Source of the DNA: Amoebophrya sp. A120
Lineage: Eukaryota > Protista > Dinoflagellata
Length of the DNA stretch: 64,000 nucleotides
Direction: 5' to 3'
Assembly: GCA_905178155.1 (NCBI GenBank)
Contig: CAJINV010000003.1
Location: forward strand, 9,989,979-10,053,978
In this document: piece after piece, positions 1-33,683 of the stretch
How positions within the stretch are numbered: position 1 is the first letter of the stretch
Layout: each line of letters starts with the position of its first letter
Notes under the pieces: model-generated
The model's database searches: none
What the model was told of the DNA's origin: nothing
Seen by the model: the letters and a program-made list of their open reading frames with translations, nothing else
Made by a program: the position numbers and the translations under genes

Positions 1-1678
1 AATTGAATTGTATACTGAGAGCCGGGATAGTTATGCTCCTGGAAGATCCCTCTGTATAAGAGTTCTCTGCTGGATCTTGATCAGATTCTATGTAAGTAGG
101 CGATCTCGTTTATTTGGTGAGGGTAGATCCTTGAGTGCCTAGGATGAAGATCGAGAACGCCGCGTCTTTCCTGCACCCTTCAGACGTAGTAAGTGCCAAC
201 TTGAAATACGCTATCCAGACGTGTGAGCGCTCAACTTCGTCTCCATACTCAGGGGGATTATGTGGTGCGATACTAGCTGATAGCCGTGTGGCCGCGACTA
301 TTGTAAAAAGCAGCCGGCTTCCGTTTTGAGTTGAAAAAACGAATCCAAAACAGAGCGGCCCAATGAATTCATGCGCTTTTGTCTGCAGCGGCAGCGAAAT
401 CTCGCGGAGTGGTATCTTCCTGCAGCTTCACGTCTTGTGCCTTCGCGGCCTTCTTCCTTCTGCCTCCTCTAGGGCTGCGCCTTGGAAAGGGCGGACTTGG
501 TGTGTCATATATTTTCTATGTGCTATGTTTTTCGCCTTTCGGGCCGGGCCCTTGTCAGCATCTAGCCCAACTTTGGCGTACTTCCGCTTCTTTTTTGTGC
601 TATTGACTAAAGATATGCGCCCCAACAAACATCGCCGGTTTTGCTTTTATCTCCTTGCTTTATTGAGCTTGGGCGCACAGTTGTTTTGCCGCTAAATCTT
701 TGTTGGGTGTCCCTTTTCCGTGTACATTCCGTGCGCAGGGCGCGCTTTCCTCTGTGTTCTCCCGATATTTGCCCGCCCCCCCGGCCGTTCCCGGTGTGCC
801 TCTTCATTCCCCGAGACCGGGGTTCCGGCGCGCTTCACGACGCTGCCCCCTTCCCTTAACACGGGGTCTCTCCTCCCATGCCAATAACTGCGCGCTGCTG
901 TGTTTGGTATACATAAAAATTGACTCGTTTACGCGGCAAGTCGCGGTATGGACGATAAAAAGGGAGACGCTGGCGCTTTTATGAGCAGTTTGGTACTAAG
1001 TACGGCATGCGCATCTTTTGCAGCCACGTCGCAGTGATAAAGGATTGTCGATAGGATGGGGCAGAAGGGTGCTGGTCTACCTTCCAGAACTACAGGTTGA
1101 TTCGCGTACACAGAGATAACGCGGCACAAATCTCCTGTGAGTGTGAGAGGAAGGGACTTCCTTCGTGACATACGCGGCCGCGCGATTAGGCGTAGAGACG
1201 GTAAAGGGATTTCCGCTATTCAGCGACGATTTGCGGACCTCTATCAATTTCAAAAGTGCACGGGCCTTAGAATTGAGGAACTTAGTATATCGCCCAGTCG
1301 TTCTCAATGACAATATATGAAACTTGGGTTGCATGAAAAAGAAAACAGAAGCTGTTACTTCATTTTCTACAGTGTCCAGGTGAGCCATTTCATCTTGACC
1401 ACGGGAAAAGTTCCGCCTTTTTCTCGCCGATGTGCAACGCAGCTCGCCTGCGATAAGAGTTTGTATTTTGGAAATGATATCCATATCGTGCAAGCTATAT
1501 GGAAAGCTTAAGGTCTTGCATTAAGAAGCTTCGTGGGGCAGTCATACTGCTTTAATTCGCGGTAGGTCAGCTTTTCGTACTGGTAACTTTCTTTGTCCTG
1601 GATGAGACGCCCGGTGAAGCCATACAAGGACTACTAGCAAGAGACACTCTTGCACCGGAACCGCAGTACGATGAGGGT

Positions 1679-10864: not shown

Positions 10865-11215
10865 GAAACTCCGACCCCAGGCCCAGCCCAAGCTTGGCAG
10901 AAGATTCAGTCCCGACCCTGATTTTCATGCTCAAGGCCAAGCGCGAAGCTGAGGCCAATTATACCTCCGCCCGAACTAAGACCGCAGCTTCCAAGTTGAC
11001 GCTGAGGCCCAAGCTTAAGCGCGAAGCAGGGACTCGACCTAAATCGCGAAGTTGAGGCCGAGCCTCTAGCTCGAAGCTGAAACGCAGGCACAGCTATGAA
11101 GTTCGTTGAGAGTGAGGCCGCAGCTCGATGCTGAGGCTCGAACGCAGACTCCTGGTCGAGGGAGTCTCAAACTCGAAACCAAAGCTCAAACCGAAACTCG
11201 ATCGCGAGATGGTTT
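10865..11215. repeat. Degenerate 6-bp-period low-complexity repeat
   Basis: GAAGCT/GAGGCC/GAAACT-type hexamers; a similar tract occurs at about 55105-55300. Confidence 0.5.
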
Positions 11216-14200
11216 TTGAAACTGCAGAGCTTCACCTATGTAAAACTTCCACTGGGTAAGAACGGGCTTTCCGTGTGGTTTTCTTTTACGCCGATAGTAT
11301 CGGCGGAAATTGACACCGACATGCCGAGCAGGTTTTTGCAGAAAGTGCGCAGCTGTATAGACAGGAAGGATGGGTCGGGACAAGGTGAAGCCAGTCGGTC
11401 TTGCCTGGGCACGTGAGCATAGAAAATCGCTGCTCGCTGCGTATCAGTGAGGTTCGTGGAGAGTCTTCGGGAAAGTTGCTCGTTTTCGTTGAGAGTGTAC
11501 AGAGAGTAGTCTTTGCGTCGCGCGTGCCTTGTATGCGAAAAATAAGAGGCACCGGAAGTTGACACAGAGGAGGTCCATCAAGCGGAAAATGTCATCCGTG
11601 GTATGACATACACGATTCATTGTCAGAGTGACTCAACTCTTCGAGCAATTCGCTTCGGATGGTTGAAAGTGAGAATTGCCGCATGGTCGTTTTCGTTAGC
11701 CTCGATAGACATGCCAAGAAAATGCAAAAAAGATTGCTGACCTACTGTCCATAGATTAGTTGCCGCGCACAATTGACTGTAGCGCCACCATGATAGAAAG
11801 TGCGGCCTTCGGGCACCATCACGACCAAACTGGAGTTGCAGTGACGGCGCGCACAGAGGAGGCTTCGGGCTCGCGAGGGCCCCCGGCTGCTGAAAACAAA
11901 GGGAGTGGCACACAAAAGTCGATCGTTGACGTCGCAGAGGAATGTACGGTCTCCTTCGTTATTCTGCCCGACTATCCACAATATATTTGCCGCATTCGTA
12001 CACAAAATGCCGACGGTCCAGTGCCTGACTGACAAGATTCTGTTCGTATCTTCATCGTGTTCAGAACGACAACTATCGTTTTGCAGTTTGGAAAAATTTG
12101 TACTATCAACATAGATCATGATCATTCTGTGCGTGTGCGGGAAATATGTACTATTGCATGCCGAGCACTACGGGCAAACAAAAGTGCTCAAGCTGGACCA
12201 AACGATACGGGAAATACGAGAGGCCTTGGAGCGGGAGCTGGCCATACCAAACTATGAGAATGCGTAACTCCCCTTTGCCCTCATCTGTCGTGGAAAAGTA
12301 GAGATCCACGGATGCTAATTCTTCGAGTTTCAGCTGCGTTGTAGCCTTAGCTAGTAATTGTGAGCAGCGTAGTGCTCGGACTCGACAGCAGCAACCACTA
12401 CAACAATAGGTCAGCCAAGGGCCGGGGCAACCTAGAGACGAGCAACAGGCCCCGTCGTACACATAAAGCGCGCCTTAATGACGACAGCATGGGCGAAGAA
12501 CCATGGAGCTCTGGATGGAGACTACTACTCCGCTTCTCGTCGTTGGACTCACACACGCCTGCCAAGCTGAGCGACTAGAGCCTCCGCCTTTGCGGTCCCA
12601 CGGGGACACTCTTCAGCGGTTCAATCGCTCAGCAGACGGGGCGAAAGCCTCCGGCTGCGCTGCGCCCTGTTCCAGATTCCTTCGCGCCTAGTTCATATCC
12701 ATGAACCCCATCGGTTCCAACCAGGACCGACGGACGAGCGTGATCGCAGTAAGACCATCGGGGGAAAAGAGGCCGCTTCGCGGATCCCTAGAGAAGGCGC
12801 CGACCTAAGCTCGGCAGGGGCCGAATCACATTGCCTGCGTGTTTGCTGGTGATTGGAAAAGTGGCGCGCCTGCCACCTCGCAAAGCTTTCGTGGCTGCCG
12901 CCGCTGCGTCATGCCGGTGGGGCACTTGGCCCCCTGTGAAGAAACTCACAGTGGGGTGGCTGGGCTTTCGGGGGGTTCGCCGGTTGGCGTGAGAAACAGG
13001 GGGGCAGGCCCAAAAAGTGCTCGCGGCGAGGGGCCTATCGGGGCGGAGTTTTCGTAATTCTCCGCAGCGCTGCGCTTGCGCCCCCGGTGCAGCATACTGC
13101 TGGCGCCCTTACTCGGCGGGGGCGGCCCCGGAGGCTGTTTTTCTTTCGTTTTCTCCAAGGGCTGCCTCGCACTACCGCCGCCCGCGCGCGGGCTTTTCCG
13201 CCAACGCACTGGGGCGCGCGCTCTGCGTTTTCTTTGTGCGCGCGCCTCCTAGATCACGCGCGCGCAGCTCTCGCCTTTGCCCCGCCCGGCCCTGCTTTGC
13301 CCGGCGGGCCGAGTGCCGAGGCGGCCCCGCGTCTTTTGGCCGCTACCGCGTTCCCCCGTGGAGCCCAGATAGCTGCGCCCCCGCTCGGACCTGGCGGACG
13401 CTCGGGGGGGGGGGCGCGCCCTCTCGATTCGCCCGGGCGTAGCTCCTGGCGCCCTTTCATGACCTTGCAGCCCCCTTCTGCGCCGGGCGTCTCGGGGCCG
13501 CTTTGCGTGTTTTGGAATTGCGCGCGCCGACGAAAGACTTCACGGTCGCGGAGCCCAACTACTCGGGCCTTTGTCCCGGACGCGTGCGCTCGGCATACGC
13601 CCGGAAGCCCACGCGGCGGGCTTTCCGGGCAAGCGGCGCCGCCATTTCCGACAAGAGGAAAAATAAGGCGGGGGTGGTTCGCTCACACGACACGGACAAA
13701 AATGCGGCTGGCACACTGGCTGAATTCTGCAAGAAGGGTCGCGCCAGCGGCGACTTCCTCGAAGCAAAAATCCCACAGGCGAGCAGCCTTGCTAGCAGTT
13801 GCGAACAACGGAGCGCCACAACTGGAGTTGCATGAGTAGACCCACCCGCAAGCTATCAATCTATATGAGCCAGGGCCTTGGTGCGCAAAAACCCGCCGGC
13901 TTGTGCGTATTTGCTTTGGATTAAGCGCGCCGAGCGGCCCGCTGCGGCCTCGGCGGGCGCTGTCCTTCGCGCGCACCGCGGAGGGGGGCCCTTGTGTGGG
14001 ATCCGCGGCCCGCTCAGAGAGCTTGCCGCGCCTTTTTTGCGTGCCGCCGTACTTTCCACGCGCGGCGCGCCCGGTAATTCCGCGCGCTTCGCTGTGCATT
14101 AGAGCCCTCCAAAGCCGGGCTGGTCCGGCCCCGTTCCTTGGAGTCTTTTTGCTCTTTTTTATTTGCCACTATTCACCCTCGGGCAAAGAAAAAAAATAGG

Positions 14201-15596
14201 CGCACGGCCCGCCTTCGGGGTGCTCGAAAATGGGGAACCGCGCGGGGGCCCAAGGAAGCCCCTGCGGTCGTGGGGCGGTCTTCGTTGCCCTGGGTCTGTC
14301 CTCTGCACTGCCACCGACTCTGGGAGCTGCGGCCGCGCTTTTTTCTCCACTGCAGCCAGGCTGGTGGCCTCAGTGAGTGCGTGTGTCGGCTTGGGTCTCC
14401 CTCAGTCGCGCGCCTGTGCAGTTTCTCTAAAAGCCGGAAGGGTCGTTTTCTCGTCTATCGGCAGACTTCGCCGACCCCGGTTGCCGCTCCCACTAGATCC
14501 AACGACTGCTGTAATTGCTGACTTTTCTCCAGCCGGGTCCCATCCTGTGCATTCGTGACCCTCAAATAGAGAGGAGGGCGGGTTGCGCAGTTTCATACAA
14601 GCAAGTCGCTCTCTATGATGCAGCTCACGGGCGTCGAAGGTGGTGCCGTAAGTGGTACACTGCAAGACACGAGAAGCCTGCGGCAGTACGGTGTTCGGTG
14701 ATAAAATGAAAAGCGCCCCGACCCCAGCGCAGACTGGCAAATACAGGAGGGGAGCGTATTTGGAAAGCTGCATGTGCAACGCAGAACATGATAGATTTTT
14801 AGCGACGCTCTGTGTTGCGCGGCGGCACAGAATCTATACATAGTATGCGCCATACCAGAGCGTCCCGGCACCACCGCTAGGCTATGAGACGAAATGGACA
14901 GTGTTTATTTTCTTCACGTGACATCGCTGTAGGTGCAGGTTCAGGTCTCCTGTATCAATCTGTACCTTCTTTGCTTCTTGCTTTCATGTGGAAAGGCGGG
15001 AGCAGCGCTTTTGCACGCGTTTTTATTTATCTGGAGCGTCGTGGGTCGCTCAGTAAACAGAAAGCGACACCAGGCTCCAAGTTCAGCCGCAGAGCAAAGA
15101 GGAAAGACAAAAACTGGCTACCAACTGATCCGACGAAAGCGCGGAAGCGCTTTTCCTGCCTGCTCTTGTTGTCGCTCGTATACTTTTTCTGAATCTGTTA
15201 AGGAGTGAAGTTTGGCCAGTTTCTGTCTGCAAAGTCGAAAATATAGCAAGTTGAAAGCTGTTGCTGAGTTTGTATACAAGCGACGCCGCGCTTGCGCAGG
15301 CCAAAGATTTCCGTTTGGACACTTTAAGTACACTTCTTGGGGAAGGGCGCTTTTTGGTATGATATCCGTCCCGGCAACCAGATAGGAATAGAACTCCGGA
15401 TCAACTATTATGAAGCTGCAGCGAGCAACTCGTCGTATTTATAGTCTCGACACAAAAGCAAAATCATGAGTCTTCTGCACGAAGTTTTGAAACAGAAACG
15501 AAGACTTATCAGAGGATAGTAAGTATGTTTTTCTGTCCGGCCGAAGCAGGAGAAGGGTAGGTTCCTGCTGCCTTGAAAAGCAAAACACTCATTCAG

Positions 15597-18500
15597 GTAT
15601 GTTATGCCGGAGGTTTTAAGTGTGACCGTTGCAGACGTCGAGGGAAGGCAAAGACAACTCACTGTTGCAGTTACGCAAGTCGCAGACGGATTTTTTTGAA
15701 CGGAGCAGGGCCTTCAAATTGATACAACATACCTGGTTAATATATGTGGGTTTACTTTTGGATGGGGAGCTAATAATTAAAAAAAGCGCACACGTCATTC
15801 CATTTTTTTTGGTAAGTCTTGAAAATTTAAGCTTGCTGATGTAATCAGAGGAGCAAATGGAAGTGCGGCAAAGTCATGCCTTGGAAGCTCTTTCTTAAAG
15901 CAACTCACGGACTTTTCATGAATAGAGTTTGCTTCGACACAACGAGACCGAGGCATGGGAAGTGCTGTTTTGAAGAAATCCCATCTGACCGACTCATAGC
16001 AATTGAAAAGCAACAAGCCGCAAAGCCCTATCAGGGTGGATATCGCCACAAGGCTTCGGGTAATTGAGAAACTCATTATTTGTATATCAGTCTGCTATAT
16101 AAAGTATCCGTTGGTGCTCTCCTTGAACAAAAATGCTTGCAGTTTAAATCAGTAATATTGATTACTTGCTGCCTGTAGCAGGAACCACAACCAATCCACG
16201 CGGCGTGGGCCGCGTGGGAAAAAATGCTCCTTGAAGGGTTAATTCGGTACCCGCGCCTGCATTGGTTTAGGGTTTCGGGCTTCTAAGGTTGAGGGTTTAG
16301 GATCGTCGGGCACGGGATACTCTTCCTGGCCCCCCTCCCACTCCCTGCGCGCCCTCTGTGGCTTTATCCTGTGCCCGTGCCTCCGCTCCCTCTCGCGCTT
16401 GCCTGGTGTTTCTTCTCGCCGACCCATGTGCCACCCCACGGCCATCGCTCATGTTGATGCTCTACGTAGCTGGTTGGGCTTTTGAGATTTTTTGGAAGTT
16501 GCTGAGGCCCTTCGGGTCGTTGGGATCGAAGGGTAAGGAGTTGCGATTCCTGTATTCCATCCCAATCCTTTTCTCTTGTGACCTCGGGAAGAAGCCGCAT
16601 GAGGCAGGAGGCGTCAGATTTGAAGAAAAAAGCGCGATCTTTAGATTGCAGTGGTTCAAAAAAAGGGCAAGAAAAACCAACACCTTTGAAGACGGGCGAG
16701 CCATATTGGGCTACTTTCATGCCTCTGCTGGGTACAAGGGGACGCCAAGAGAGGCCAAGCGCTATACTTTTGAAGCAAAAAGACGTCCTTTTGGTTGTTC
16801 TTGCTCTTTTAGGCCTCAGGCAAGATCCGGAAAAAGTGGGTCGCAAGATCCGAAAGAAGCCAAGGGCGGCTACAAAGTTGGCCACTGTTGGTCTTCTGCC
16901 GGCCGAGCGAGGTCCGGAAGAACGCAAAGAAAAGGGCCCGCTTCTACGATAGTGCGCACATTTGCGCTTGGGCTTCCTCAGAGGTGTTAAAAAATAAGTC
17001 GCTTGCGCATCACGAAAGCGCTCGCTTTTGGCCAGATCCAGAAGACGGCAGAGGAGTTGCTTTCTCGTTATAAAGGCGGCCACTCTTCTTGGCTCCCTGC
17101 GGAAGGGGTGATCCCGGAGGAAATTAAAAAGCCACTTGCTTCTTTACAAAAGTGGTCATTTGTGCCTTCTACTGGAGGGGCCAGAGCTGGAAGAAACCAA
17201 AAGAAAAGCGCGCCTGTCCTTAGAAAAGTGGGCGCCTCTGGAGTCTTCCAGAAGGGCCAGACCTTCCGGAGGCCCGAGAAGCATCCAGCCGCTTTAGCCA
17301 AAATGCGCCATCGAAAGTGCCGCGTTTCATTTTGAGCCTTCAGGAGATTTTAAAGGCTGGGCCTTGAGGAGGTTCAAAACCTTCTGAAGGGCAAAAGGTC
17401 GCGAGCTGCCGAATTTTCTGAAGGTTTTTTGGACCCAAACGTTTCAGAGGGTTGAGAGAACACCTGCAGAAGGTCCAGACCGCCTGCGGGGGAGAAAAAG
17501 AAGCTATACTCTTCCGAGACTTGACCCAGTTCTGTTTTTGTTTCGGTCATTTTTTTACGGCGCTCGAATGTTCACAAGGTTTTTGCCCGTCTTCATGCGG
17601 CACGCCATTCGAGCCGTGGGCAAATGTGAGCGCACACTCCCGATATATGATTCACTAAGCCTGTTTCTCCTTTTGGACCTCTGGCCGTTTTCCACTTATC
17701 TTAATCAGTACCCCTTGTTTGGTATACCAAAGCATCGCAAACGGAGCGCAATGGCCTTCCCGTTGCCACATGTGCGCAATTCGATGGCGTGCCATCGTTC
17801 AAAAAGCCGGCCAGTGCTCGTTCGGGGCGAAAAAGTGGATTGGAAAGGAGCCCCATTTTCTTCAAAGACAGCAAAAACAGGAGGCCTCCAGAAGTGGAAA
17901 GGCCAAAAAAGTCAAACTTTGCGGCTCGGCTTGCTTTGTTTCGGAAAAGGAGCAACGGCAGTTTGAACTACGGCTGATGGCGTGGAGCGTTGCGTGGCTG
18001 AAATGTTGCCACCCGGGAGGCTGTCTGACCGCTTCTGGGCCAGAATATGAAAAAGACGCAAACTCTCGAGTAGCACAAGCCACCCAAAAAGACTGCGAAA
18101 CTCGTGCCCGGACCATCGGCCGCTTACAAATTGAAGGCGATGCCTTTAGCTTAAAATGCTCACTCCGTTTGGAAAGTGCGACCCGGAAGAGGCCGCACAT
18201 TGTCCGGGCCGAAGCAATAAAAAGAACGCATTACTTCTCGGAGCGGACGCGTGCCCTTCCTGCCCAGTTTTCGGCCTCGTTGAGGGCCAGGAATTGCGGC
18301 GCTTCCCTTTCTTACAAACGCTTTACTTGGGCGGCCCAAAAGGACTGCCGGGAAACGCGAAAACTACGCAAATCCGTGGGATTCGTCGGCTTTTGCCGGT
18401 CCGCCTGCTCTGCTCGCGCATAGACCTTCGCGCTGACTCGGACGCTATGCGCGCTTTTGTGTATCAGCATCAGCCCTTCCGGCGCGACCTGCATAAACGA

Positions 18501-21500
18501 ACTCGGTATTGATAGTCTATTTCCATCTCCGTTTACACTTCTTCGCCATATTTCCCGTGTCTGAGAATATAACGCGCCTGCATTTCAGGCGTCATGTACC
18601 ATCACGGGAGCACTCAAACCGCCAGGCTCGAGTATGCGTTCGAAGAGGCCGTCTACTGCCGAGCAAGAAGGAGCAAGTTTATAGTGCGGCAATTTTCAAC
18701 TCAATGCGGTACAAGGTTCGTCCACGCCCTTACTCATGTTGCATGATCATTTGTTACATAGATAAGAAGACGCAAAGGGTATGCTTGCTCTTACGTGCCA
18801 GTTAGGAGCGCATCTTCCATATGATATTGAGGAGAAGGAGTATACAACCAAGTTTCACCGAGACACGCTATCAGACGAAGAGTGCGTGGCGTTTACAACA
18901 CTTTGCCACGAATACTGCACAACTTTTCTATATTTCAGGCAAAAAGTTTTTTTACCCAATAGATAGATAGATAGCTAGCTAGCTAGCTAGCTCTACCCGG
19001 CAGGAAGACAAAACTAGTTCTAAAAAATTATTTACCTTATGCGATCAACAGGCTCGAGAATTTGTCTTCTGAAGTCAAATGACTCAGCACGCCTTCTATT
19101 AAGTCCCCTAAAGTCTGGTCTGCTAATCCAGGCGGTGGCAATTATTTCGTGCCAGACTTCTAAACAAGTTTTCTTGCCTCTTGGCGGTAGTTTGTCTAAT
19201 AGAGAGCCCCCAGCTCGAGGCGGCGCCGGCGGCGCCACCTAGAACCCAGTTTGCGTCTTGGGCGGCGCCCCCAGGTTTGCGTGTTGGGCGATTTTTGAAG
19301 CGTAAAAAATTTTGGGCTTCGCGCGATTTTCGGAGATCAGAAAAGTTTTGGGCTTTGCGCGATTTTTTGAATTTTCAAAAAAGGGCGATAGTGCGAGGGT
19401 GCTAGAGCGAGGCGGACCGCAATCGAGCTTCCCTTCACTGCTAAAACGGGTGGCGTTGCGTCACTCGAGATGCCTGGCTCTCAATGCAATGCAATGCAAT
19501 GCAATGCAATGCAATGCAATGCAATGCAATGCAATGCAATGCAATGCAATGCAATGCAATGCAATGCAATGCAATGCAGACAATCGACCTTCAGGAACTC
19601 AATGACAGGACGAGGGCAGCTCTTCGAGCTCGCCTGACGCGGAGTTTTTGTCTAAGAAGCTCGCGCTGCATTGAATTTTCAAAAAAGTTTCGAAGTTTGC
19701 GAATTTATTCGAAAAATTTCAGAAATATTCAGGAGGTGGGCGAATGTTGGGAACTCGTGAATATTTTGGACATTGGCGAAGTTCGGAAAAGGCTGTGGAG
19801 ATAGGCACCTTCACAAACTCGAGCATATTTTTAATTTATGAAAGCGGGCAAAGTTCTTGCTCTACTTCTAGTTCGCAAAAAAATTTTTTAAGTTTGGCAA
19901 TTTCAACAGCCCGAAGATGTTTTGAAAGACAAAAAAAAGTCTGCAGCTGCGTTGCGCGATTTTCTTTCCCCGGGGCGCTCGTTCATCTTCCGCAGCGCAG
20001 CAATAGGAGACATATGCCATGCCTAGGCGACTATATACTAACTATATATAGTTCATCGTCACACTTAACTAGCCACGTACGCTTCGCGTTTGCCTGTAGA
20101 AATGTTAAAGAATAACGCAGCACAGGGCGCCAAGGAATAGAAGGACGGGGCAGTAGTCGCTCGAAAAACGAGAAAGAACTAGGCGCGGACGGGCTTCCCC
20201 TGGCGAAGCATGTCGGCCCGGCGCGCCGCGACCCGCAGGCCTGAATGATCTTGCCTGGCTGCGCCTTTCGGCGTGCCGGTTTGCTTCCGCAGGGGCCGTG
20301 GAAGTCCGCGTGGCTTGCTGCATGTCCTCCGTTTGCCCCTGCCTGCCTCGATCCGTCCGGGTTGCCGGAGGTGCCTGGCAGGACCCTCTTGGGGCCACTC
20401 GGCTTCGCCTGCATGCTGGGGCCCGCAGAAGACGGCGCCGCCAAGGCCTTCCGCCCTTATTGAGGCCCGGTATGTTAGGTGGGTCTATCTCCTGGCTTTG
20501 GCTTTTCATTCAGGGCGGCCGCGGTTCGGGTCGCGCGCGCAGCGCGAAAAGGTCGGTCTGCTCGTTTCTGCGGATCGCCAGCGAGATGGTACGGAGAAGG
20601 GGCGCGCGAGCGGAGGAAGTGGGGGGCGCCGCGATCTCGAGCGCCAAGGGTTGAAGCTAGAAACACTCGCACAGCAGACATCGGACGCGGAAGCAACTTG
20701 CAGCCCCAGGAGGGCACGTGCTGGCTTGTCACCACACATCAGAAGTCGCTAGCTTTCTGCGCTATTGTGCCTCCGCCGGCTTCCCGCCGGTGGGGCGCCC
20801 GACTTTTTTTTGCGATTGCGCAGCCAGTATGTGGTTGTAGGTCTGCGCATTTCCATTTGTTTCTATCTCGATTGGGAACCGTCTCTCCTGTGCCTGAACA
20901 AGTACCGGTCAATGCGACTAACGGAAAAGGCCGCGCTCTTGCGTCGTGCCATCGCCAAGAAAGCGACTGGCTTCGGAGCGAAATAACGCCCCACCTCAAC
21001 GTGCAAGAGCCATGGCGCACAGTATGGTGATCTAGAGGAGTGTTGCGCGTCGCAAATGAATTATCTTAGGCCTTGGCAAAAATATAGATTTGGATCTTGA
21101 GGGGCTCGCAGGGCAATTTGTAAAAGTCACGCCAAGTATATCGAAGAAAAAAACACCATCACAATCACAAAACTCAAATTTTCAAAATTTTTGACCATCA
21201 AAATTAAAATTTCGCTGGACTTTCGCGGCACTCCCGAACCTGTTGTATCTGGTTTTGAGTGTTGAGTTTTGCAGCAGATGATTTATGATATTGGCTATTG
21301 GCGGTAAGCTAGCTAGTTAAGAAGAGAGATTTCTGAAGACAATCGTTCAGCTTCCAGCAGACGAACAGTGGTAGATGGGGTTGTCGCCCTCTGGCCCCAC
21401 CTGGGGCCAGAGGGCGACAACCCCATCTACCAAGCTTCGTCTGCTGGAAGCTGATCGTTTGTCTTCAGAACTCTCTCTTAACTAGCTTACTCAAACCGCC

Positions 21501-24500
21501 ATTTTTGACATAACCAAATAGCTAACACAAAAATAAATACATTCGCATTCGAGAATTGAAAAGTATTTTCTTACCTGAAAATCAAAATAATTTTTTGTTC
21601 AGCTCCTGCAAAATTTTGAAAATTTGAATTTTGTGATTGTGATGGTGTTTTTTTCTTCGATAAAGTAGTTTGTGTCCTCGATACGCGCAGACCGTCGATC
21701 ACAGAACGCGCTCGGTTCAGTCAACACGGGAAACAGGCACCCAAATGCCAAAGAAAGGTACGACATACGGCCAGGCTCTGCGGCCGACAATATCTTGTAA
21801 AGCATGAGTCCACTTCTACGCTGATGAAGTGATAAGCTGCAAGTTCTTCGCGTAGCAAGCATATTTTTGATTATCTATGAGTAGTATCATGGTGGTATGT
21901 ACACGTAGGGAGGTCACGAACGTTGTAAGCTCGCGTCTTTTTTGCCATCTAGTGCGAAAAACGACCGGCAGTTTTGAAGCGGGCGGAGGTGTTTGCACAC
22001 GAAAAGCCACGCAGTTTTGAGCTGGCCGGGGCTTTGTTCCGAAACAAGCCCCCCCGAAATTGCAGCTATTGCCGTGTATAAAGACGACGCAGAGCAGGAG
22101 CCCAAAACAAAGTGGCGCCTTAGGGCCTGCCGATTCGAGGGGCAGAAAAAACAGCGGCGTGAAAACAAAAAACCAGCATGCTGTGGGCCTCATCTTAGCC
22201 CACAGTTGAAGACAAAAAAGCGGCCAGCAAAGTCGGCTACTTGTAGGGCCTGGAGCAGGCCAAAAGCAAACAACAAAAAAAGGACGCGCCGCCAAAAGCT
22301 GAATGCATGCTGACTGGGTGCTCACGGAGCCGGCCCGGGCGGGCGCCCGGGCGGGGCCATGGCTACCTTTTTTGTTTCCCAAGAGCCTCCTTTGTTAACC
22401 TTGTAACCCTCTGCGCGATACCCCGCGCACAGGCCCCCATTTTAACGCGAACCTTTTTAACGCGCAATGCCCAGCGTACCTTTTTAACGCAAACAGGCCC
22501 CCTGCTTAACCCTCTGCGCAATACCCCGCGCAGGATAGATGGTGATGATGATGATGATGATGATGATGACCAAGAGTTTACCGCTTTTCGCCCTGTGCCA
22601 AGAATCGAAGGCCAGGGCGCCGCATGTTCCAGGCCCGATTTCGGGCACCCAAGGGGTCGACGCTCGCGGAGGCCCAGCCTGGGCCACTGCAGGTGGGCCA
22701 GGTTTTTTCTTTTAGTTGGCATGGGTTTGCCGCCTTTCGCCAGAAACCGAAAGCCAGGCCGCGCACTCTTGGCAAGGTTTCTGGCCCTCATGGGGCCGCC
22801 CTCCTGGTGGCGGCTCAGCCGGGGCCAGGACCAGCCTGCGGGAAAGCGTTCTGCTTCTGAAAGCAGCTGGGGAGGCTATAAATCGCCTACTTCACTCGCG
22901 ATATTGATGGCGTGCCGCATCATGCGGAAGAATGATTTGCGCGAGGTCATGGCGGTCACAGAAGGACGCGGTCAAAGGCCGCGCAAAAAAACCGCCCTGG
23001 CCGCACTACCCCCCGAGCCGGCTACTACTAATAAAATATATTGGTAGCCAGTGGCGCCGAAAGAACGTGCGCCGGCGACTCTGTTGGCGTTTAGGTGACA
23101 AGCTGGGGGATTTGTCCTCTCTATGTGCTGAAGTCACAAGACTTCTACTTACTTAATATGTCTGGTGAGTTTTTTGCCACCGAAGCAGCAAAACGAGCGG
23201 CAGTTTGTGTGCGGCCGGAAGTCTTTTCTCCACATAGAAAGGCTGCGGCTTCTTCTAAGCTGGTAGGGCTTATTTGCCGCCGAATAAACCTGCCTGAGTG
23301 ATAATGTTAATTCTATATCCGCGACGTGAAAAAAGAAAAAGAACGCAAGGGCGCCGGCAAAAGTGGCGGCCTTGTGAGGCACCCACCGCCTGAGATATCG
23401 GCGGCTTGCGGCGCTCAAAAAGGGGCGCAAGGAACGCGCCAGCACGAGCGAAACAGGTGGGCCGCCTGGCGCGGGCAGGATTTCGGCGCATCTCCAAGGG
23501 CCAAAAGGGCCGCCATTAAGGCGGCCACCTGTGCGGCGGGCAGCAGGCCAAAAGCTGTGCGCTCTAGACGGAAAAACGCCCCAAATAATACAGGAGCCGG
23601 CAAAACCCGACAGCCGGCCTGCCATGCTATTGGCCCGACGCCGGGCGCTCATAGGTCTGCGGCCGGCGGAGACCCCTGCGTTTGGGGGCGACTTTCTTTT
23701 TTGAAGACAAACAGCCAGCGCGCGACTTTTTGGCCCCAATACTAACTTCCTGCCACGCCACGAAGACCAATATATTTATAGGCGCGGCGGCGCAGTTCTC
23801 GAGACAGAGAGCGCGACTGTTCCGCTCATTGCGCTGCGCGAAAAAGACAGAAGGACGGGCCGTAGCCAGCCAAACAAAAAAAACCGCACTGACGTCACTA
23901 CCCCCGCTGAGGCGGCGTAGTGTATATTGTAAATCGGCTTTTTTGGAAAAAACTGGTCGCGCGCGCTACCATAGCGTGACCGCGTGTCAGTCTCAACAAA
24001 ACAAAACAGGAGTGGTTTACGTGAGCGACGAGCACGATAAAGTGATCTCAGGCACGCGGTATTTCAGCAGTGCGGACCTTTTTGCGCTCAGACTCGAAAA
24101 AATCCAAGTCATACAGTGCCATGCTCGGGGTATGTTTGCACGGAGACGCGCGCGCATGCTAAGACAGGTGAGTACTATGCTATGTGCTTTTCTGTTCGCG
24201 GCTAAGACCGTAGCTATCCTACGAGACTCGAAGAGCTGCGCCCGCTAGGCCTGGCAACACAAACTTGCGCTAGAAGGAGCAGAGTTCACAGAGTTCCAGG
24301 GCGGGACTCGTTTTTATGGCGGGGGAGAGCACCTCCGACGCCGACCCCTCCTTTTGGTTTTGCTCCACTTCTTACATGCGTCAGCGTGTGAGAACGCATA
24401 GCACTGTCATTCTGGGGGGGGGAACCCCCCCCGTTCCAGCGCGCATTGCTGTGACCGTGTGAGAAGCTCCCCTTTTTTCATCCTGGGGGAGGAGACCCCC

Positions 24501-27500
24501 CCACCCCACCCCACCCCCGCCTCCCTCTTGTATCGCGCACTGTGATCAACGTGTGAAAACCGGCAGCACTTTCTTCCTGGTGGGGGAAGACCCCATCCCA
24601 CCCCCCCTCCCACTTTTCCAGCGCGTGCTGCTATGACGGTGCGGCAACCTGCACTATGTTCACTCGGGGGGGGGCGAAATCCGCCCCGACATCCCCGTGA
24701 CCTCCATGGGGGTGAAGCCCCTCGGCCTTTCCGCCCGTAGCGAGCGGCAGCAGGCCAGGAGTGCAGCCCCGCCCGATAGCGCTAGGGAAGCGGCGCCAGC
24801 GCATGCTGGGCAAGCGGCAGCCGCGAGGGAAGCGAAAGCCGGCTAGCGCAGGGAAGCGGTAGCCGGCTTGCGCAGGGAAGCCGTAGCTGGCACTCTGAGT
24901 ACGGTGTCGTTCCGTTGAGCAAGCCTCTGCCAAAGTGCCTTCTGCCTTAGTTCAGGCTGCTTCTTGTTGCCCTGTCCGGTTGCTATGATGGGTAGGGTCC
25001 CTCTCCCTGCGTGGCTAGGTGCTGCTACACGACGGACCCCGCAGAGGCAGGTGCTATCCCACGGAGGCTGACTCGTTACCCGACTCGCCATGTCAAGCCC
25101 GGCCCGGGGGCAGGCCGGCTCGTGCCCGAACGTACGCCCATACATAGTAATGGATCCGATGCCGTTCTTTCACCTGGGCCCGGCCTGAAAAGAGTGGCTC
25201 CGGAATACCTCGCGGGGCGCCAGGAGCTATGCGTTGGATCTCCGCTGGCTGCATTGCCAGGAGTGTAGGATACCTGCCGGCCGATGCGACGGCGCTGGAC
25301 CACGTTCCACAGCCCCATGCTGCACCCTCGGCGTGCTCTCGTCGGTCCGACGCCTGATGCAGCTGCCCGTCAGGGCAAGCGTACGCAGGAGTGGGCTGGG
25401 CTAGGTGCGGCACATTCGTCGCACCTCCTTGCCAGGCCGCGCACCCTACCGGCGAGATGGGGAACACCATCCACCCCAAGGACACGTGGCAGAGCTTGAG
25501 GATTTATTTTTGCGGTGCTCTAAAACATTTCCATCGTGATGAAGCGATGACAAACAAACGCCAGTACTACTACTTCCCCAAACCACAGCGTAGAGACGAG
25601 AGCGCGCAGCTCGCAGTCGCGAAAGAGCAGAGGAAGCAGCTGGAGGCCGAGTTGCGACACAAGCGCGAGTATCCGCTGCAAGCGCGAGCACCCGCCTGGA
25701 TCAAGAAAAATGCAAATTCTTGCGCTTGCTGCTGCTGTTTGTGTGCAATGAGAATGACGAGAACAGTGGCGCTTCAATTCATCACATGGATTGGCGTTTA
25801 TGGGAAAATTATTATGAGTGTGCTGCAGGGAACGTCAAGCTGAAAGCAGCGGACATTGCCCAATTATGGCGGTTCGCTGTTTTTTTGCTGTATCTTTTAT
25901 GACGAGCTCGTATCAAGAAAAGAGTCAAAGAGTTGGTAGAAATGAATGGTTGAGTATGAGCGTCAGACGGAAGGTAGCTAAGACGTGATGAGTAGCGGAA
26001 TTGCCTTATGTACTCAAGCACACGCATTGTAAGCACTCTTGCATTTTCTTCGACTCAGATATGTTTGCAAATGAAAACGAGATTCAGCGGCGCATGCATC
26101 CCAGGACGTACGAAGACTTCGCAGTTCTGCACAAAGAATTGGAGATGTGGCGAGTAAAAGAAACCCGAAGAATAAAAGAAGGTAGAACTGTGGTAGTTGT
26201 TTTCTTTGCCTTCCTGAGGTTGCCCTCATGAAACAATTCTCATCTTTGCAAATAGCGCTCGTCTATTTTGCGCGACAGACTTTTTGTTTTTACACCGCAT
26301 GCATTATACCCAAAATAGATCTGGACACCAGTAAGGAGCAGAAGCACCAAGCCTTGGAGCAGCTGCTGCACAAAGAGACGAGGTTGCTGCAGACCCTGGA
26401 CAAGTTGAAGACTCAGGCGCACAAGCAAAACAAGGGCGCCAAGGTCCGAAAACAGCTCGAACAAATGTCACAGCGTATCCTGGGTAAAAACCTCAAAACC
26501 TCGCCGCGTGGCACGTACGCAGCAGAGAAGTCCACTTTATTTACTACATCGCGCAGAGTTCGGGTGTGAACTTACTGCCTGACCGTCTTCGGAGGTGGTT
26601 TCTAGATCCAGTCTGTGTGCCGGTTTTTACGTCGGCGCGACTTAGGGTGCATGGGGTAAAAATACGAATGGCCACGCCGGCGTGTCCGGCTACCGCTTAC
26701 CTGACGTGCACAATGCGCGAAGTTGAATAAAGTCAAAAGTCTGTTTTTGTGTAGTCTACTCCATGCATCGGGCGATATTGTCTGGGGTGGTTTTTGGACA
26801 GGATACCTCCAAAGGTGTGGCGGCAAAGTGATAACGAGATTGTACGCAAGACATTTGAGTGGCTGTCTCTCCGTTGTCCCGGTAACCTCACATGGAAGAC
26901 ATATCACAGACGCAGTGCTGTGTGGGATTGGTTGCAGATCGATTTGCAATGCGAAAAGCTCAATTGAACAGAAAAAGCATACAACATCGTGATTGGGTTC
27001 AGAAGCAGCTGCAGGAGACGCAGGCTGTTTTGACCAGTTGCGGCCGTGTGCGCAGCATGACGAGCTTGCGTTTTTATGCAAAATGAAAGACTCAATGAGG
27101 CACTCCCACTTGAGCTTCCAATGGATTTCTTGTGAGTCGGATCGTGGCAATGGAGAATCAGCTATCTGGCGCGTATAAGCGACAACGGTCCACACACCCT
27201 ACACCACTAGGGCAAAAGAACTGCTCGACCTCTTATGATCTGCAAGAGTGATGTAATCGCTTCCGACACTGGCCTCGCTCATTTCCTCCAGCCGTTTTTC
27301 TATGAGTGCGCATGTCTTGTTGCAACCAGTTGTTATTTGGCAGCATATATATGCTTAGCATAACCACGGCTGCGCGACTATGCCACTGTTGCAACGCATA
27401 CCTCTACAACGGCCTCAATTTGCCCCTCCTGTCTATTGACGAAAGGCTCGACGTGCTGCTACACGTATAGCTTTGTTCTTTTTGGTCTTCGTTTTTTGAC

Positions 27501-28740
27501 TCTCGGAGATCGGACCTTCTGGCTATCTCTTTTATTCGTCGCCACCTCTACCTCTAGGCAAAAACAAAAAGTCGTCTTGCCAAACACATCATGCACAGAA
27601 GTGGATCGTGATGTATCGGCCGTCGTGCCTCTGCCGACCGGCTCTCGTACGAGGGATCTGGTATTAAGAATAAAGAGAAGAACTGGAATAAAAAAAAGAG
27701 AGAGAAAACTCGTTTATGCGATACTGGCCGCCACGCAATTTCTTTTTCTACGCATTCGCCGTGGCGCACTAAATTTACATGGGTCGCCGGGAAAGGTCGG
27801 CGGGCCAAACACACAACGCACGGAAGTGAGACTATGTGTCAGCCGTTGCGCTTCTTTTACCGAGCGATCCTCGTACGAGGGGGATTGGGCGTGATGCTAG
27901 CAATTTACATCGGTTGCCCTCGCCGCGCCACCTCTAGGCAAAAGGTTGCCGCGCCAAACATACAACGCACGGAAGTGAGTCGTTTTCGTCATGTATCAGC
28001 CATCTCGCCTTGTCTACCGTCCGATCCTCGTGCGTGGGGGATCGCGCGCTGCCCTTCGTGTCTAGTACTGGCTATCACGCAGTCTCTATGTAGTCGCTGT
28101 TCCGCACGAAGTTTGCGCTGGTCGTCGTGCCACCTTTAGGTATATTGAGGTTCTTGTCGTTCCAAACCCACAACGCACGGATGTGAGTCATCATTTTTAT
28201 GTGTCTACTTTTCGGCCGTCGCGACTCTACCGACCGATCCTGGTACGAGGGGAATCGGGCGTGTCCCTTTGGATACAAATAAGTACGCACCGCACGACGG
28301 CAGTGAGTGGTCACTATGTATCAGCCGCCGCCGCGCCTCTACCGACCGACCCTCGCACGAGGGGAATCAGGCGTGGCTCTTTGGATGCAAATGTAAGAAA
28401 TCATATCCAGAATGAGTCCGAGTTTATTCCTGATTCTTAGATCAATTTGCAATGACGTCTGCAGGTGAAGTGGACGGTAAAGGAGTTCGACTGCAATCTG
28501 ACCAGAGACATAGTCGACTTGATTGATCGAGAAGCCGACATGTTGAACCGAGGCCGCAGCGAGTCGAGCTTCGCTGGCCTACGAAAACGGCTGGCAAACT
28601 TGTTCCTCCAATTTGTCGAAACGCCGGACTTCAACCCCGAGGCGAGTCGATTCCAGCAGGTTCCGCGGGACATGATTCGTCAGACCGCAGTGCAGCCGCT
28701 GTCTACCGTTCCGCTCAACACTGCAGTTGGCCGAAAATGA
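15597..28740 (+). CDS. IQUB: IQ and ubiquitin-like domain-containing protein (IQUB/FAP253, flagellar radial spoke); multi-exon, 5' exons not resolved
   Basis: Inferred exons, boundaries approximate: 15597-15669 (YVMPEVLSVTV..), 16002-16059 (IEK..KPYQGGYRHKASG), 18589-18632 (VMYHHGSTQT), 18832-18868 (KFHRDT), 21689-21757 (QT..TRSVQSTRETGTQM), 24010-24167 (IQ motif IQCHARGMFARR), 25589-25669, 26082-26181 (RRMHPRTYEDF..LEMWR), 26319-26474, 26807-26841 (PKVW), 27182-27233 (HTPYTTRAKEL), 27406-27464 (ERLDVLLH), 28465-28740 (VKWTVKEFDCNLTRDIVDLIDREAD..FNPEA). The motif order matches the IQUB family as I recall it. Confidence 0.9.
18959..18992. repeat. Compound (TAGA)n(TAGC)n microsatellite
   Basis: atagatagatagatagctagctagctagctagct, read directly from the sequence. 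Confidence 0.9.
19482..19578. repeat. (CAATG)19 pentanucleotide microsatellite
   Basis: Perfect tandem array; it explains the MQCNA-repeat ORFs in the track. Confidence 0.97.
21139..21662. mobile_element. Foldback/MITE-like element with about 50-bp TIRs, TA ends and a perfect central hairpin
   Basis: TCGAAGAAAAAAACACCATCACAATCACAAAA.. at 21141 is the reverse complement of the sequence ending at 21660. Central 31-bp perfect arms at 21369-21399 and 21402-21432, with imperfect pairing extending over about 21300-21490. Confidence 0.85.
21904..23030 (+). mobile_element. Helentron-like family copy containing a nested insertion
   Basis: 5' CGTAGGGAGGTCAC...AAAACGACCGGCAGTTTTGAAGC; degenerate 3' GCCGCACTAC-CCCCCG at about 23000. 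Confidence 0.55.
22386..22569 (+). mobile_element. 184-bp SINE-like insertion with a (GAT)n tail and a 7-bp TSD
   Basis: CCAAGAG at 22379-22385 and 22570-22576; ends in a GAT run; internal direct repeat TAACCCTCTGCGC(G/A)ATACCCCGCGCA. Confidence 0.7.
23122..23928 (+). mobile_element. Diverged Helentron-like family copy
   Basis: Degenerate 5' TATGTGCTGAAGTCAC..AAAACGAGCGGCAGTTT; 3' GACGTCACTAC (23891-23901) followed by the hairpin CCGC-tgag-GCGG and TATATT. Confidence 0.5.
24010..24167 (+). CDS. IQUB: IQUB exon carrying the IQ motif
   Basis: cag| ... |gtgagt boundaries; encodes VVYVSDEHDKVISGTRYFSS..KIQVIQCHARGMFARRRARMLRQ. Confidence 0.85.
24315..24890. repeat. Repeated G-tract/C-tract hairpin units followed by short tandem AGCGCAGGGAAGCG units
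   Basis: GGGGGGGGAACCCCCCCC, GGGGGAGGAGACCCCCC, GGGGGAAGACCCC and similar; GGGAAGC repeated about every 20 bp at about 24780-24885. Confidence 0.6.
27583..28400 (+). repeat. Five-unit degenerate repeat array inside the last IQUB intron
   Basis: Core ACAACGCACGGAAGTGAG..TATCAGCC..CCGATCCTCGTACGAGGGG starting near 27583, 27808, 27956, 28164 and 28286, separated by variable spacers. Confidence 0.8.
28465..28740 (+). CDS. IQUB: IQUB terminal exon
   Basis: ctgcag| acceptor; conserved C-terminus LIDREADMLNRG..GLRKRLANLFLQFVETPDFNPEA; TGA at 28738-28740. Confidence 0.9.
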   Translation: MKWTVKEFDCNLTRDIVDLIDREADMLNRGRSESSFAGLRKRLANLFLQFVETPDFNPEASRFQQVPRDMIRQTAVQPLSTVPLNTAVGRK

Positions 28741-29594
28741 CCAGAGGAGGAGAACCAGCATGTCCCCCGGTTGGCCCGATGCATCAGTTTCGCGTTACTT
28801 GTTGTGCTGCCTGATTCCGAAGTAGCTTTCATGCCCAGCCAATTATACTATATGAATACAGCCCTATCCTATAATTTAATGAATCTAAATACGCTCGTTC
28901 AAGGTTTGGGCGTTTTGCTTTTCCTTTTGTTAATGACTGACCCGCATTATCTCAAGCATGCTGCAATTGTCAACTGATATTCCGTGAGCAATGTGCTTCA
29001 GGAATGCGCAGGGCTTCCACTTAGGTAACAGATTTTTCCGCTCTATAATTCAACCGTGTGATGATTTGCTACACGGAAAACAATCCGAGAACATTTGGCG
29101 CTCAGGCTCCGGCGGTTTGGAAGCAGTTGGTTTAGTCTCTTCGCAAGACCACGACCATACGGATGCATGTTTCATGTATATAAAATCCCGCGGGACGTCT
29201 GCCGCGATCAACCGAGACCGAACAGATTTCAATCGAAAAATAGGAGTCGTGTGGGAATAGCTCTGCCATCGTTGAGTATGTGCTGCATTTTATTCAGACC
29301 GTGGCTTTTTGTTTCTCTTTAATCCACTTCGCAGTTTTCGATCGCGAGGCGATGCTGTTTTTCTGATTCGCTGTAGTTTCGCGCAGTCCTGGAACTATGG
29401 ATCGAGTCTTGTCGTTCTAGCGAAAGGCTGTTACTCACTTTTCTGTAAAAACTAACTCAGGAAACGCAAAAGCAAAACCAAAAAGAAGTAGAACGAAGCC
29501 CGGCCCCTTTTTTCGTTACCCCTCCCCTTTTTTTCTTTTTTTCTAGTCTGCGAAACAGTAAAACGAGGTGCGTACCCCGCGCGTCCCATCGCAC

Positions 29595-29615
29595 GATAGA
29601 TAGATAGATAGATAG
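29595..29615. repeat. (GATA)5 microsatellite
   Basis: Read directly from the sequence. Confidence 0.85.
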
Positions 29616-29928
29616 CGATTACAACTCAGAGCGGAAGCCTATGGACGTAAAGTCGTTGGTTGAGCGAATCATTGTCAGCAGCCCGCAAAAGCCCGCAGCA
29701 GCTCGCTTTATCGGGTCTCGCGGTTTTCGCCGAAAAATTAGATCAACCCGGTGAATCATCAGTAGGACTCGATGCTTAATACGCTGGACGTTTTTCTCCT
29801 ACGTACTACTTACTGCCTCGCTTGCGGATGTTCGCGCATACATGAAGGGCGATTTCTGTAGTTGTTAGAGAGTAGAGGAGTCGCTTCCAGAAGGAGTGAA
29901 AGCGATCGGAATCAGTCACAGTCAATAG

Positions 29929-32300
29929 ATGGGCTTGGCATACAGTAGCATTTTTCAGCGACTGCCCCCCGGGGCCCGCGTGGTTGTGATGGGACCTCAG
30001 AACGCGGGCAAGAAGACGTTGGTGGGCCGGCTCAAATTACAGGAGGAAAAGATCGTAGTTCGCATGCCGGATGCATTCAGCATTCGAGCCTTTCGCACGC
30101 CTCCGACCACCGTGACCGGATCTGGCCGGGCGGACGGCGTAGGAGATGGACCACGATATGCATTGCAAACATAGTATCCATCTGGGTCTGCGAGGTATTG
30201 ATGCTAATTCTTGAATGACAAAGCGACTGCTGCAGGAAGCAACGGGTCACAAGTGTTGTAGCGCAGGATAATTGGCTCGTCTTGTACATGACAAGCCCGG
30301 TTGTTGTCTGCGCGGATTCCTACAAGAGAGGTAGCTTGTCCCCAAGTGGCGACGAAGAACGGGAGCAGCAGAGCGCGGCGAGGTTCCGGCACTGCAATGG
30401 CTCCCTTCTGTTTTCAGCATAGCAAGCCGCACTGGCCACACCTCGCCCCCCGTAAAGGATAGAAGTAGCCCCCCGCAAGTGCGGCCAATGCCGTCCGCGC
30501 GTGGTCCCATGCTGTGCGACCGGGGCCAAGGTTTTGGACGGTCCGTGACGAACGTGCTGGACAGCCAGGAGATCGTATGATATCCGGGGCGCGATCTCGC
30601 ACTCTCCGGCCGGCTCGAGGTTGGTGGGAGGTGGCGCCTCGCTGAGACCGGGCTTTGGCAATTCTTGGGGGCGCCTTTCTGAAACGCCGAAACCCGCAGA
30701 GACCGGGCCGACCGGCCAGGCAATCGTTCGCTACCTGCTCGCTTCGCATGTTATTGATAGTCTGCCTGATGCGGGTTGGGCGTTCGCCGGCTGACTAGGC
30801 GCGCAGCTTTTGCCTTTCCCGGCTGGGTGGTAGAGCAATCTGTGGCCGGGGTACGTCGGAGGGTGTTGCTTCGCCATTCCTTTTCTCCGCGTATGACAAT
30901 CGCCTCGAACAGGGACTGCCAGCAAAGTGGGGCGGCGCTGCGACAAGCATGGAAGCCGAGAGGGGCAGCGCTACACTTCGAAGCGCAGGCGACAGGGCGT
31001 CAGCCACAAAGAAGCGGCGAAGGGCTCCGGGTGGCTGCCTATGCGAATCTGTAGCGCGTCGCCTGGGCTGTGCCGGCTCCCCGCGAGAATGTGTCTAAGG
31101 CAGGCCGCTAATCTCCCATGGGGGCCACGGGGTTGATCGGGTTGAATCATGAGCAAAACAGCCAATCTACCTGGTAGATGTAGGCGGCAGCGCGCCTCCC
31201 TGCGTTGCGTTACCACAGAACTTGCCGGAGGGGTGTCAGTGATGCGCGTGCGCCGGCCAGCAGCGCAAACAGGCCGGCCGGCCACAGGCCCGGCGGGGTT
31301 GTTCACATTGGCGGCATGGGCAACAAGAAGCCGCTGCGCAAGAACGGCAGGCACCAGCGAGCTTGTTGGCGCCACGACAAAGGGCGACGGACAGGACGCG
31401 GGCGAGGCGTGCAGCACGCAGGCGGGCCCAGGTGCAACGAGGCGCCTACGTCCAGCGCGCGCCCGCTGAGTGGTTTGCCTTGTTGCCAGCAGGCCCGGCG
31501 AGCAACCTACTGCTGCAGGACACGCGGGCAGGCCGAAGAAAACAAGCGTGGCAACGGCGGGGGATGCAGCGCAGGGAGCGCCGGCGATGTATTGCGATGG
31601 CGGGGGGCGCTTCGGGTCAGGGCAAACCGGGCGCACCGGAACACGTAGCGAAGGCAGGGAAGCAGGCGAGGCGATGCGCCGCAGGGGCAGGGAGCGAACG
31701 CCCGCGAGTGCGATGTTGCGTTGGCTGCAGTGTTCCCGACCTAGAATTGTTTGCAATGGATGCATGACCTGCGGAAGCAACGCCGTCGGTGCTGTGCCTT
31801 GATTTAACACGAAAAATCTGGGCCAAGTACGCTGCGGATTTGCGGAAGTACTACAGTCAAGCGGAGTGTCTCTATGAGAGTGCACAAGCCCTCGCCCACG
31901 TCAGTTGAAGGGCATCTGCAGAAAAAGAACAAGGGGTAGCGAAGTGGTCGCAGCCCCTGTATGATACACTGGGAAAGGGGGAGCGGTGCACCCGCATAGT
32001 TGCATTTTCGTCGTTGACAGTAGTGACCGAGATTCGCTACTGGACGCCAAGGATCTGCTGCGCCGGTTGCTGAAAGACCCTTCCGTCACGGATAGTGTTA
32101 TTCTGGTGCTGGCAAACAAGCAGGACGTGGACGGCGCACTGTCGGTGGGCTCCGTGACACGCCTGTTGGATCTGGAGCAATTCAACAGCTTGATCTGGCG
32201 CGTCATTTCCACATCCGCGCTCTCTGAGCAGGGCGTCTACGAAGCCTTGGACTGGATGAGCCGAACAATCGTCAAGAAGGCGGAGCTCGATGCAGATTGA
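29929..32300 (+). CDS. Divergent ADP-ribosylation factor (ARF/ARL)-like small GTPase, at least 4 exons
   Basis: N-terminal MG myristoylation-type start; P-loop GPQNAGKKT; exon at about 31807-31847 (TRKIWAKY, equivalent to IRPLWRHY); GT-AG intron 31848-31999; last exon CIFVVDSSDR..VLANKQD..TSA..GVYEALDW ending at TGA 32300. Confidence 0.85.
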
Positions 32301-33636: not shown

Positions 33637-33683
33637 CACACGAAGCGCCAATCGCATTTCTTGCCGTATAGTAAGTATAGCTG

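Follow-up and report, generated by a model that had tools for sequence, protein, structure and literature searches.

Non-canonical introns of an IQUB gene and its neighbors in Amoebophrya sp. A120 share one cut register at the ends of transposon-like inserts

A 64,000-nucleotide stretch of the Amoebophrya sp. A120 genome was analyzed (contig CAJINV010000003.1, positions 9,989,979 to 10,053,978, forward strand; hereafter the window, with positions counted from its first letter). It contains an IQUB gene at 11790-28740 on the plus strand, with 17 exons, 16 introns and a 541-aa product with a match to Pfam PF25805. Ten of these introns, and ten more in three neighboring genes, lack GT-AG ends, and all 20 fit a single register relative to short terminal inverted repeats. 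IQUB/FAP253 is presumably a protein of the flagellar radial spoke. The annotated A120 protein, P0001, also carries PF25805 and falls in exact peptide blocks on the 17 exons; this identity bears out the assignment of the DNA to Amoebophrya that had been made from its letters alone, and by itself it would fit A120 or any strain with the same sequence in these exons. The last exon (28465-28737) matches IQUB proteins, the top match being that of Amoebophrya sp. A120 (99%), and the protein of strain A25 is 90% identical. The spliced exons form a single open reading frame (ORF) of 541 aa that equals P0001 minus one residue, Tyr123, and P0001, which is thus near-identical to this frame, is 79% and 71% identical to the proteins of relatives. 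Retention of any one intron introduces 3-32 in-frame stops.

To place the introns, all placements compatible with P0001 were enumerated and then checked against public sequencing runs. Some junctions can slide by 1-6 nt, and coordinates are given here in the common register. The original prediction, which covered 15597-28740, listed five clean GT-AG introns, and these were recovered exactly: intron 6 (16060-18588), intron 9 (21758-24009), intron 10 (24168-25588), intron 12 (26182-26318) and intron 16 (27465-28464). It also proposed up to seven introns with other ends, and exactly seven are present: intron 5 (15671-16002, TT-AA), intron 7 (18632-18830, GT-GA), intron 8 (18868-21687, CT-CG), intron 11 (25669-26080, GT-GA), intron 13 (26475-26809, GT-TC), intron 14 (26842-27181, GT-CG) and intron 15 (27233-27404, TT-TC). 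The gene starts upstream of that interval, which adds three non-canonical introns, intron 1 (11972-12164, CT-GA), intron 2 (12252-14601, CT-AG) and intron 3 (14698-15368, GT-CG), and one GT-AG intron, intron 4 (15435-15596). In total, 10 of the 16 introns are non-canonical and six are GT-AG. A GT-AG, GC-AG, GA-AG or AT-AC placement was sought within the slide range of all 10 non-canonical introns and none was found, which removes the possibility that transcripts use only GT-AG, GC-AG or GA-AG junctions at other positions.

Transcript support was drawn from public runs compared over window positions 1-19450 and 19600-39500. Three of these (X1, X2 and X3) are sets of assembled contigs from two samples; that they are RNA is a guess, and they may share data with those from which the published gene model was built. 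We treated them as RNA because their contigs join exons and skip introns. Introns 1-7, including those at 15671 and 18632, are joined in contigs of all three. Introns 9-16, including the non-canonical ones at 25669, 26475, 26842 and 27233, are joined in X1 only. For intron 8, in which the two compared stretches meet, there are only matching loose ends from both sides. Depth over the spliced contigs was 57-269, and several introns had little or no cover. The locus is also covered by two DNA-like runs, X5 and X6, in which none of the listed IQUB joints occurs. The inserts are therefore removed in the putative RNA, as had been proposed, and the joined contigs and open 541-aa frame speak against an untranscribed locus or a pseudogene. 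At intron 3, P0001 carries the extra Tyr123, at a position where the other aligned IQUB proteins are gapped, and in the RNA-like contigs of X1, X2 and X3 the intron measures 671 nt and this residue is absent. An unspliced X1 contig of depth 5 also spans intron 3.

The three neighboring genes contributed 13 further junctions, four of which were rebuilt from loose ends or micro-exons. After removal of their introns, these genes become open frames of 949, 209 (ARF family) and 338 aa. Together with the 16 IQUB junctions this gives 29, of which 20 are non-canonical (10 in IQUB and 10 in the neighbors) and nine canonical.

All 20 non-canonical junctions fit one pattern, exon|N-TAT...ATA-NNNN|exon, in which the intron begins 1 nt before TAT and ends 4 nt after ATA. 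At this offset of 1, at least four of the six TAT/ATA bases match in 20/20 junctions, compared to 11/20 and 10/20 at offsets 0 and 2. With a total overhang of 5, at least five of six bases match in 19/20 junctions and in 0.7% of random junctions; no other total overhang did better than 7/20. Nine IQUB introns first revealed the pattern, and the remaining eleven introns then conformed to it. No slide is possible at five junctions (those of the introns starting at 26842, 4012, 5422, 6840 and 37865); all five lie at offset 1, with 0-2 of 5 matches between the flanking repeats, and intron 14 in particular pins the register. When the cut was instead placed at random within the duplication, the common register arose in 0 of 50,000 trials.

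The same geometry identifies the inserts. Matches between the two flanks are raised at exactly five positions, at which 14, 12, 12, 10 and 11 of the 20 introns match, or 59/100 overall, compared to 3-7 of the 20 at the adjoining positions. The inserts are elements with terminal inverted repeats (TIRs) and a 5-bp target-site duplication (TSD), cut between bases 4 and 5 of the duplication on both sides. By this geometry, an excised element takes with it exactly the equivalent of one copy of the duplication, so that its removal gives back the uninterrupted coding sequence at any insertion site. The first three bases of the inverted repeat are TAT in 16/20, TAC in 2, TAG in 1 and TGA in 1. In IQUB, the termini read TAT...ATG in intron 1, TAT...ATA in intron 2, TGA...ATA in intron 3, TAC...ATA in introns 5 and 14, TAT...AAA in intron 11 and TAT...ATA in introns 7, 8, 13 and 15. 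The original prediction had each of the seven introns in its interval bounded by direct repeats, inverted repeats or both, and this agrees with what was found: the 5-bp direct repeats match at 4, 4, 4, 4, 2, 0 and 5 of 5 positions in introns 5, 7, 8, 11, 13, 14 and 15, respectively, and four of the seven have a strong terminal duplex. Introns 1, 2 and 3 match at 4, 4 and 3 of 5. Both the identity of the inserts and their common register in this stretch seem to us very secure.

An intact form of the insert is nested within intron 8 at 21139-21662. It has TAT...ATA ends, TIRs that match at each of the first 20 bases, arms of 86 nt and a perfect 5-bp TSD. With its TIRs, a duplication of fixed length and no transposase, it has the features of a miniature inverted-repeat transposable element (MITE), and along with the duplications and termini of the introns themselves it upholds the view of these inserts as transposon-like. 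DNA-run depth in X5 was 300 and 227 in the bins holding this element, compared to about 43. The element appears young, is separated by 25 nt from the 3' end of its host intron and contains an inner hairpin with 78-nt arms (21322-21479). Depth over the bins of intron 5 was 131.6 versus 23.4, which hints at a repeated family there as well. A strict scan for TAT...ATA pairs returned 37, one of them with a perfect 5-bp TSD; a looser de novo scan returned 251 pairs, mostly chance matches, and was dropped. Pfam gave no match in the five long ORFs scanned from IQUB introns and no transposase in 16 long ORFs of the window. At the gathering score, Rfam matched nothing in the window, and hence yielded neither a self-splicing intron nor an RNA gene; 14 weak matches of microRNA type, located on a hairpin and a simple repeat, all fell below threshold. 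Intron 8 contains the simple repeat (CAATG)19 at 19482-19578.

The individual positions of the register are not equally conserved. On the donor side of the 20 non-canonical introns, +2 is T in 20/20, +3 is A in 19/20 (G in the other) and +4 is T in 16/20. On the acceptor side, -7 is A in 20/20, -6 is T in 19/20 and -5 is A in 16/20. Positions +1, -1 and -2 are free: G+1 occurs in 6/20, a terminal AG in 3/20 and the two together in 0/20, so none of these introns has the GT/GC-AG ends of a U2-type intron. All 20 have the U+2 and purine at +3 of a U2-type donor, and the canonical donors in the same genes have T+2 in 9/9 and A+3 in 8/9.

These positions would also pair with one another in a terminal stem. 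At least 27 of 28 mismatched controls were weaker than the terminal duplex in 14/20 non-canonical introns, compared to 0/9 canonical ones, so a terminal stem is common and not universal. Such a stand-out duplex is present in 7 of the 10 IQUB introns, including introns 5, 13, 14 and 15 but not the other three in 15597-28740: introns 7 and 11 have a weak inverted repeat and intron 8 a short anchored stem. The inverted repeats are strong in introns 2 and 5, and so is the terminal stem in intron 13. In whole-intron folds, the ends of intron 13 were closed (z -2.1) and those of intron 14 were closed in a shifted form, and the ends of introns 15 and 7 were left unpaired, yet both are spliced in register. 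The proposal that removal is guided by structure therefore fared unevenly: it is favored by the 14 stand-out duplexes, and against it stand the 6/20 introns with none and the two folds with open ends. The proposal that removal is guided by repeats is disfavored, since introns with 0-1/5 direct-repeat matches (26842-27181, 4012-4504 and 6840-7190) are cut at the same register. The direct repeat is dispensable for removal.

If only pairing, or only binding by a transposase, mattered, the two ends would be expected to decay in mirror symmetry. Instead, the +4:-7 pair is mispaired in 4/20 introns with A-7 kept each time, and +2:-5 varies on the -5 side only; this asymmetry points to a read-out of the sequence itself. 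The +4:-7 mispairs are uncompensated, and the only sign of covariation is a weak one at +6:-9 (p 0.02, one of five positions tested).

From these signals we propose, as the likeliest explanation, that a relaxed U2-type spliceosome may remove the inserts, using an N-UA donor, a branch A at -7 and a 3' cut set by distance, a reading to which we give an even chance. The left end of the element would supply U+2 and A+3 of a donor whose +1 base is free, and the right end would supply the A at -7 as a putative branch point. Distance from A-7, in place of an AG, would fix the 3' cut. In young elements, the terminal stem may help to bring both ends together, and could decay later. In the accessible text of Farhat et al. 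(2021; PMC7789003, which, like the other papers cited here by PMC number, was available in part), nearly all spliceosomal proteins and U2, U4, U5 and U6 are reported from A120. In Table S4 of that paper, T is the second base of all nine predominant A120 motifs, and all nine A25 motifs start with TT; both sets fit the register found here. A branch A at a fixed position has a precedent in Entamoeba invadens, where it is placed at -8, and the reported spliceosomal removal of TIR-derived non-canonical introns in Fritillaria is a second precedent.

A stricter form of this proposal can be advanced only tentatively, at somewhat less than even confidence. It holds that the introns share one hidden splice code, with an N-UA donor, an A at exactly -7 and no need for G+1 or AG, and that the spliceosome branches at that A and measures the 3' cut from it, with the same coordinates applying in A25. 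For A25, the text and Table S4 of Farhat et al. would predict TTA...TAA ends with a 6-nt overhang, which would again give U+2, A+3 and A-7.

Several observations weigh against a relaxed spliceosome. An AG is central to the chemistry of the second step in U2-type splicing, and here it would be dispensable, being present at only 3/20 junctions. T is found at -9 in only 8/20 introns, so that the region before A-7 does not resemble a box that pairs with U2. The stem predicted for these introns would bury +2 to +4 as well as A-7 and would have to be unwound. The asymmetric decay comprises 10 deviations examined post hoc, with a chance probability of about 0.017, and conserved transposon ends could explain part of it. 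The sample is 20 non-canonical introns from four genes in 39.5 kb, among the joints listed, with 13 further joints outside the counts. Also outside the counts are an X2-only joint at 8221-8316 within a high-copy repeat, whose 3' end does not fit the register, and DNA-run joints in repeats at 4039/4042-8140 and 8388-8827. Finally, U1 was not detected in A120 in the accessible account (PMC7789003).

Among the alternatives, the one that survives best is a spliceosome-independent route like that of Euglena, which we consider possible although rather doubtful. A nuclease would read the end of the stem, with its 1-nt and 4-nt overhangs, and make fixed cuts; a ligase would then join the exons and the intron would leave as a circle or a linear molecule. 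The fixed geometry of the cuts relative to the stem end, the contrast in stand-out duplexes between non-canonical and canonical introns, the lack of any need for G+1 or AG and the missing U1 would all suit such a route, and euglenid introns, which pair +4..6 with -8..-6, leave as circles according to the available text (PMC11282704). It is harder to reconcile with the introns that have no stand-out duplex, with introns 7 and 15, which keep the register with ends unpaired in the folds, with the uncompensated +4:-7 mispairs beside a single weak covariation, or with T+2 and A+3, which coincide with the canonical donor. The original prediction had inferred a route alongside the spliceosome, and this alternative comes closest to it; the invariant U+2/A+3, shared with the canonical donors, gives such a separate route no support. 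The specific euglenid pairing of CAG at +4..6 with CTG at -8..-6 was rejected, as TAT stands at +2..4 and ATA at -7..-5 instead. No back-joint of the kind expected from a circle was among the joints listed, although assembled contigs are ill suited to showing that circles are absent.

Improbable, in our judgment, is a spliceosomal route in which the stem measures out the 3' cut, the branch lies elsewhere, upstream and variable, and A-7 is a mere conserved transposon end. This would account for the lack of a U2-type box around -7, for the stem predicted in most introns and for a donor that is like the canonical one at +2 and +3, but A-7 is kept in 20/20 introns while its partner at +4 changes in four, and introns with decayed stems hold the register. 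Minor (U12-type) splicing was rejected because the junctions show no AT-AC register and, in the available text, the minor small nuclear RNAs are reported absent (PMC7789003). There is only a very slight chance that removal is guided by direct repeats, or that the joints are artefacts of assembly or of template switching by reverse transcriptase in a disrupted gene copy: short direct repeats beside hairpins are the usual setting of template switching, most junctions here lie in such a setting, and the guessed RNA status and possible non-independence of the contigs leave room for it, but against it stand the five no-slide junctions in register, the 541-aa frame obtained only by splicing, the depth of the spliced contigs beside the little or no cover of several introns, the open frames of the neighboring genes and the absence of any listed IQUB joint from the DNA-like runs.

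Much about this intron class is already published. The accessible text of Farhat et al. (2021; PMC7789003) describes A120 and A25 introns with non-GT-AG ends, inverted repeats of 8-20 nt that start with TAT in A120, direct repeats of 3-5 nt and genes that mix both intron types, named heterogeneous genes, and it includes this same gene model (GSA120T00015372001). The IQUB introns belong to the A120 class by their transcript-supported non-GT-AG ends, terminal inverted repeats, boundary direct repeats and TAT starts, and the mixture of intron types in one gene, correctly seen in the original prediction, is thus a known phenomenon. The legend of Figure 3 in that paper gives splice sites as variable relative to the hairpin, with an unknown border and no clear signature, in contrast to the one register of the 20/20 junctions here. 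What this analysis adds is one common cut register, with U+2 and A-7 unvarying, observed in 20 introns over 39.5 kb. We found no statement of a single register in the literature on Amoebophrya or Syndiniales introns, a search that left most subscription papers outside, and the figures of Farhat et al. may show part of it.

Comparable systems share some of these features. In Fritillaria borealis, non-GT-AG introns also derive from elements with TIRs and TSDs, and their removal by a U2-type spliceosome is reported; those introns are mainly AG-AC or AG-AT and U1 is conserved, in contrast to the N-TA donor, free acceptor and undetected U1 of A120 (PMC11282704, PMC13326754). The nonconventional introns of euglenids resemble those described here in having a stem at a fixed offset, a 3' overhang longer than the 5' one, TSD-like repeats and coexisting GT-AG introns, and differ in the sequence and position of the paired bases and in the circles reported for them (PMC11282704, PMC11170887). 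MITE-derived introners are likewise introns made by non-autonomous TIR elements with a TSD, with 58 families in A120; many of them carry or co-opt splice sites according to the Figure S8 legend, whereas the present inserts need neither G+1 nor AG. The automated TSD calls in that study range over 2-11 nt with no single register in the rows seen, 2/58 for A120 and 30/60 for A25 (Gozashti 2025, PMC12130899).

To compare intron positions among relatives, 80 metagenome loci were checked, and only one (L002; 73% identity, genomic with introns) gave usable positions. Over the span of A120 introns 6-16, this one relative, a small sample, shares 0/6 non-canonical and 2/5 canonical intron positions. The shared ones are intron 9 and intron 6; for the latter only the acceptor side is seen, and its codon and phase are the same in both. 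L002 has no counterpart of introns 10, 12 and 16, all canonical. This pattern agrees with a recent gain of the non-canonical introns, although it is too small for proof. L002 also has a GT-AG intron (214-348 of that locus) two codons downstream of the position of intron 8, and non-canonical introns are absent from the part of it that is seen.

The surroundings of the IQUB gene add some further observations. The upstream gene with the 949-aa frame begins with an 844-aa first-exon ORF that has no Pfam match, and contains micro-exons of 10 nt (5412-5421) and 11 nt (6829-6839). The first of these lies between two non-canonical introns with precise splicing on both sides, which limits the exon length that the machinery can need. 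Two non-canonical introns interrupt the ARF-family GTPase gene (29902-32300), which lies directly downstream of IQUB. A contig of X1 extends from the final exon of IQUB as far as 30156, which makes the two transcribed regions adjacent or overlapping; a single transcript is not implied. A high-copy repeat family is represented at 8138-8853 and 49710-50431 (724 nt at 85% identity; depth in the DNA run reaching 1531, versus 23), with further pieces at 21905-22005, 23337-23490, 33691-33817, 38989-39064, 39800-40173 and 47766-47865. Canonical intron 9 owes some of its length to diverged pieces of this family. Canonical intron 16 contains several diverged direct repeats at 27567-28392, 3-4 per family, spaced 110-370 nt apart and with no Rfam match.

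Introns spliced without GT-AG make up more than 60% of the total in Amoebophrya. For strain AT5, a share of 99.98% GT-AG introns is reported. A single register replaces borders described as variable and unknown with exact coordinates. With it, re-annotation of tens of thousands of junctions would become possible, and it would explain how the reading frame is restored after insertion. Together with the invariant U+2 and A-7, it makes the mechanism of removal directly testable. If a relaxed spliceosome does remove these introns, it would be one that needs neither G+1 nor AG. If they do share one hidden splice code, any TAT...ATA element with a 5-bp duplication would be a ready-made, frame-neutral intron.

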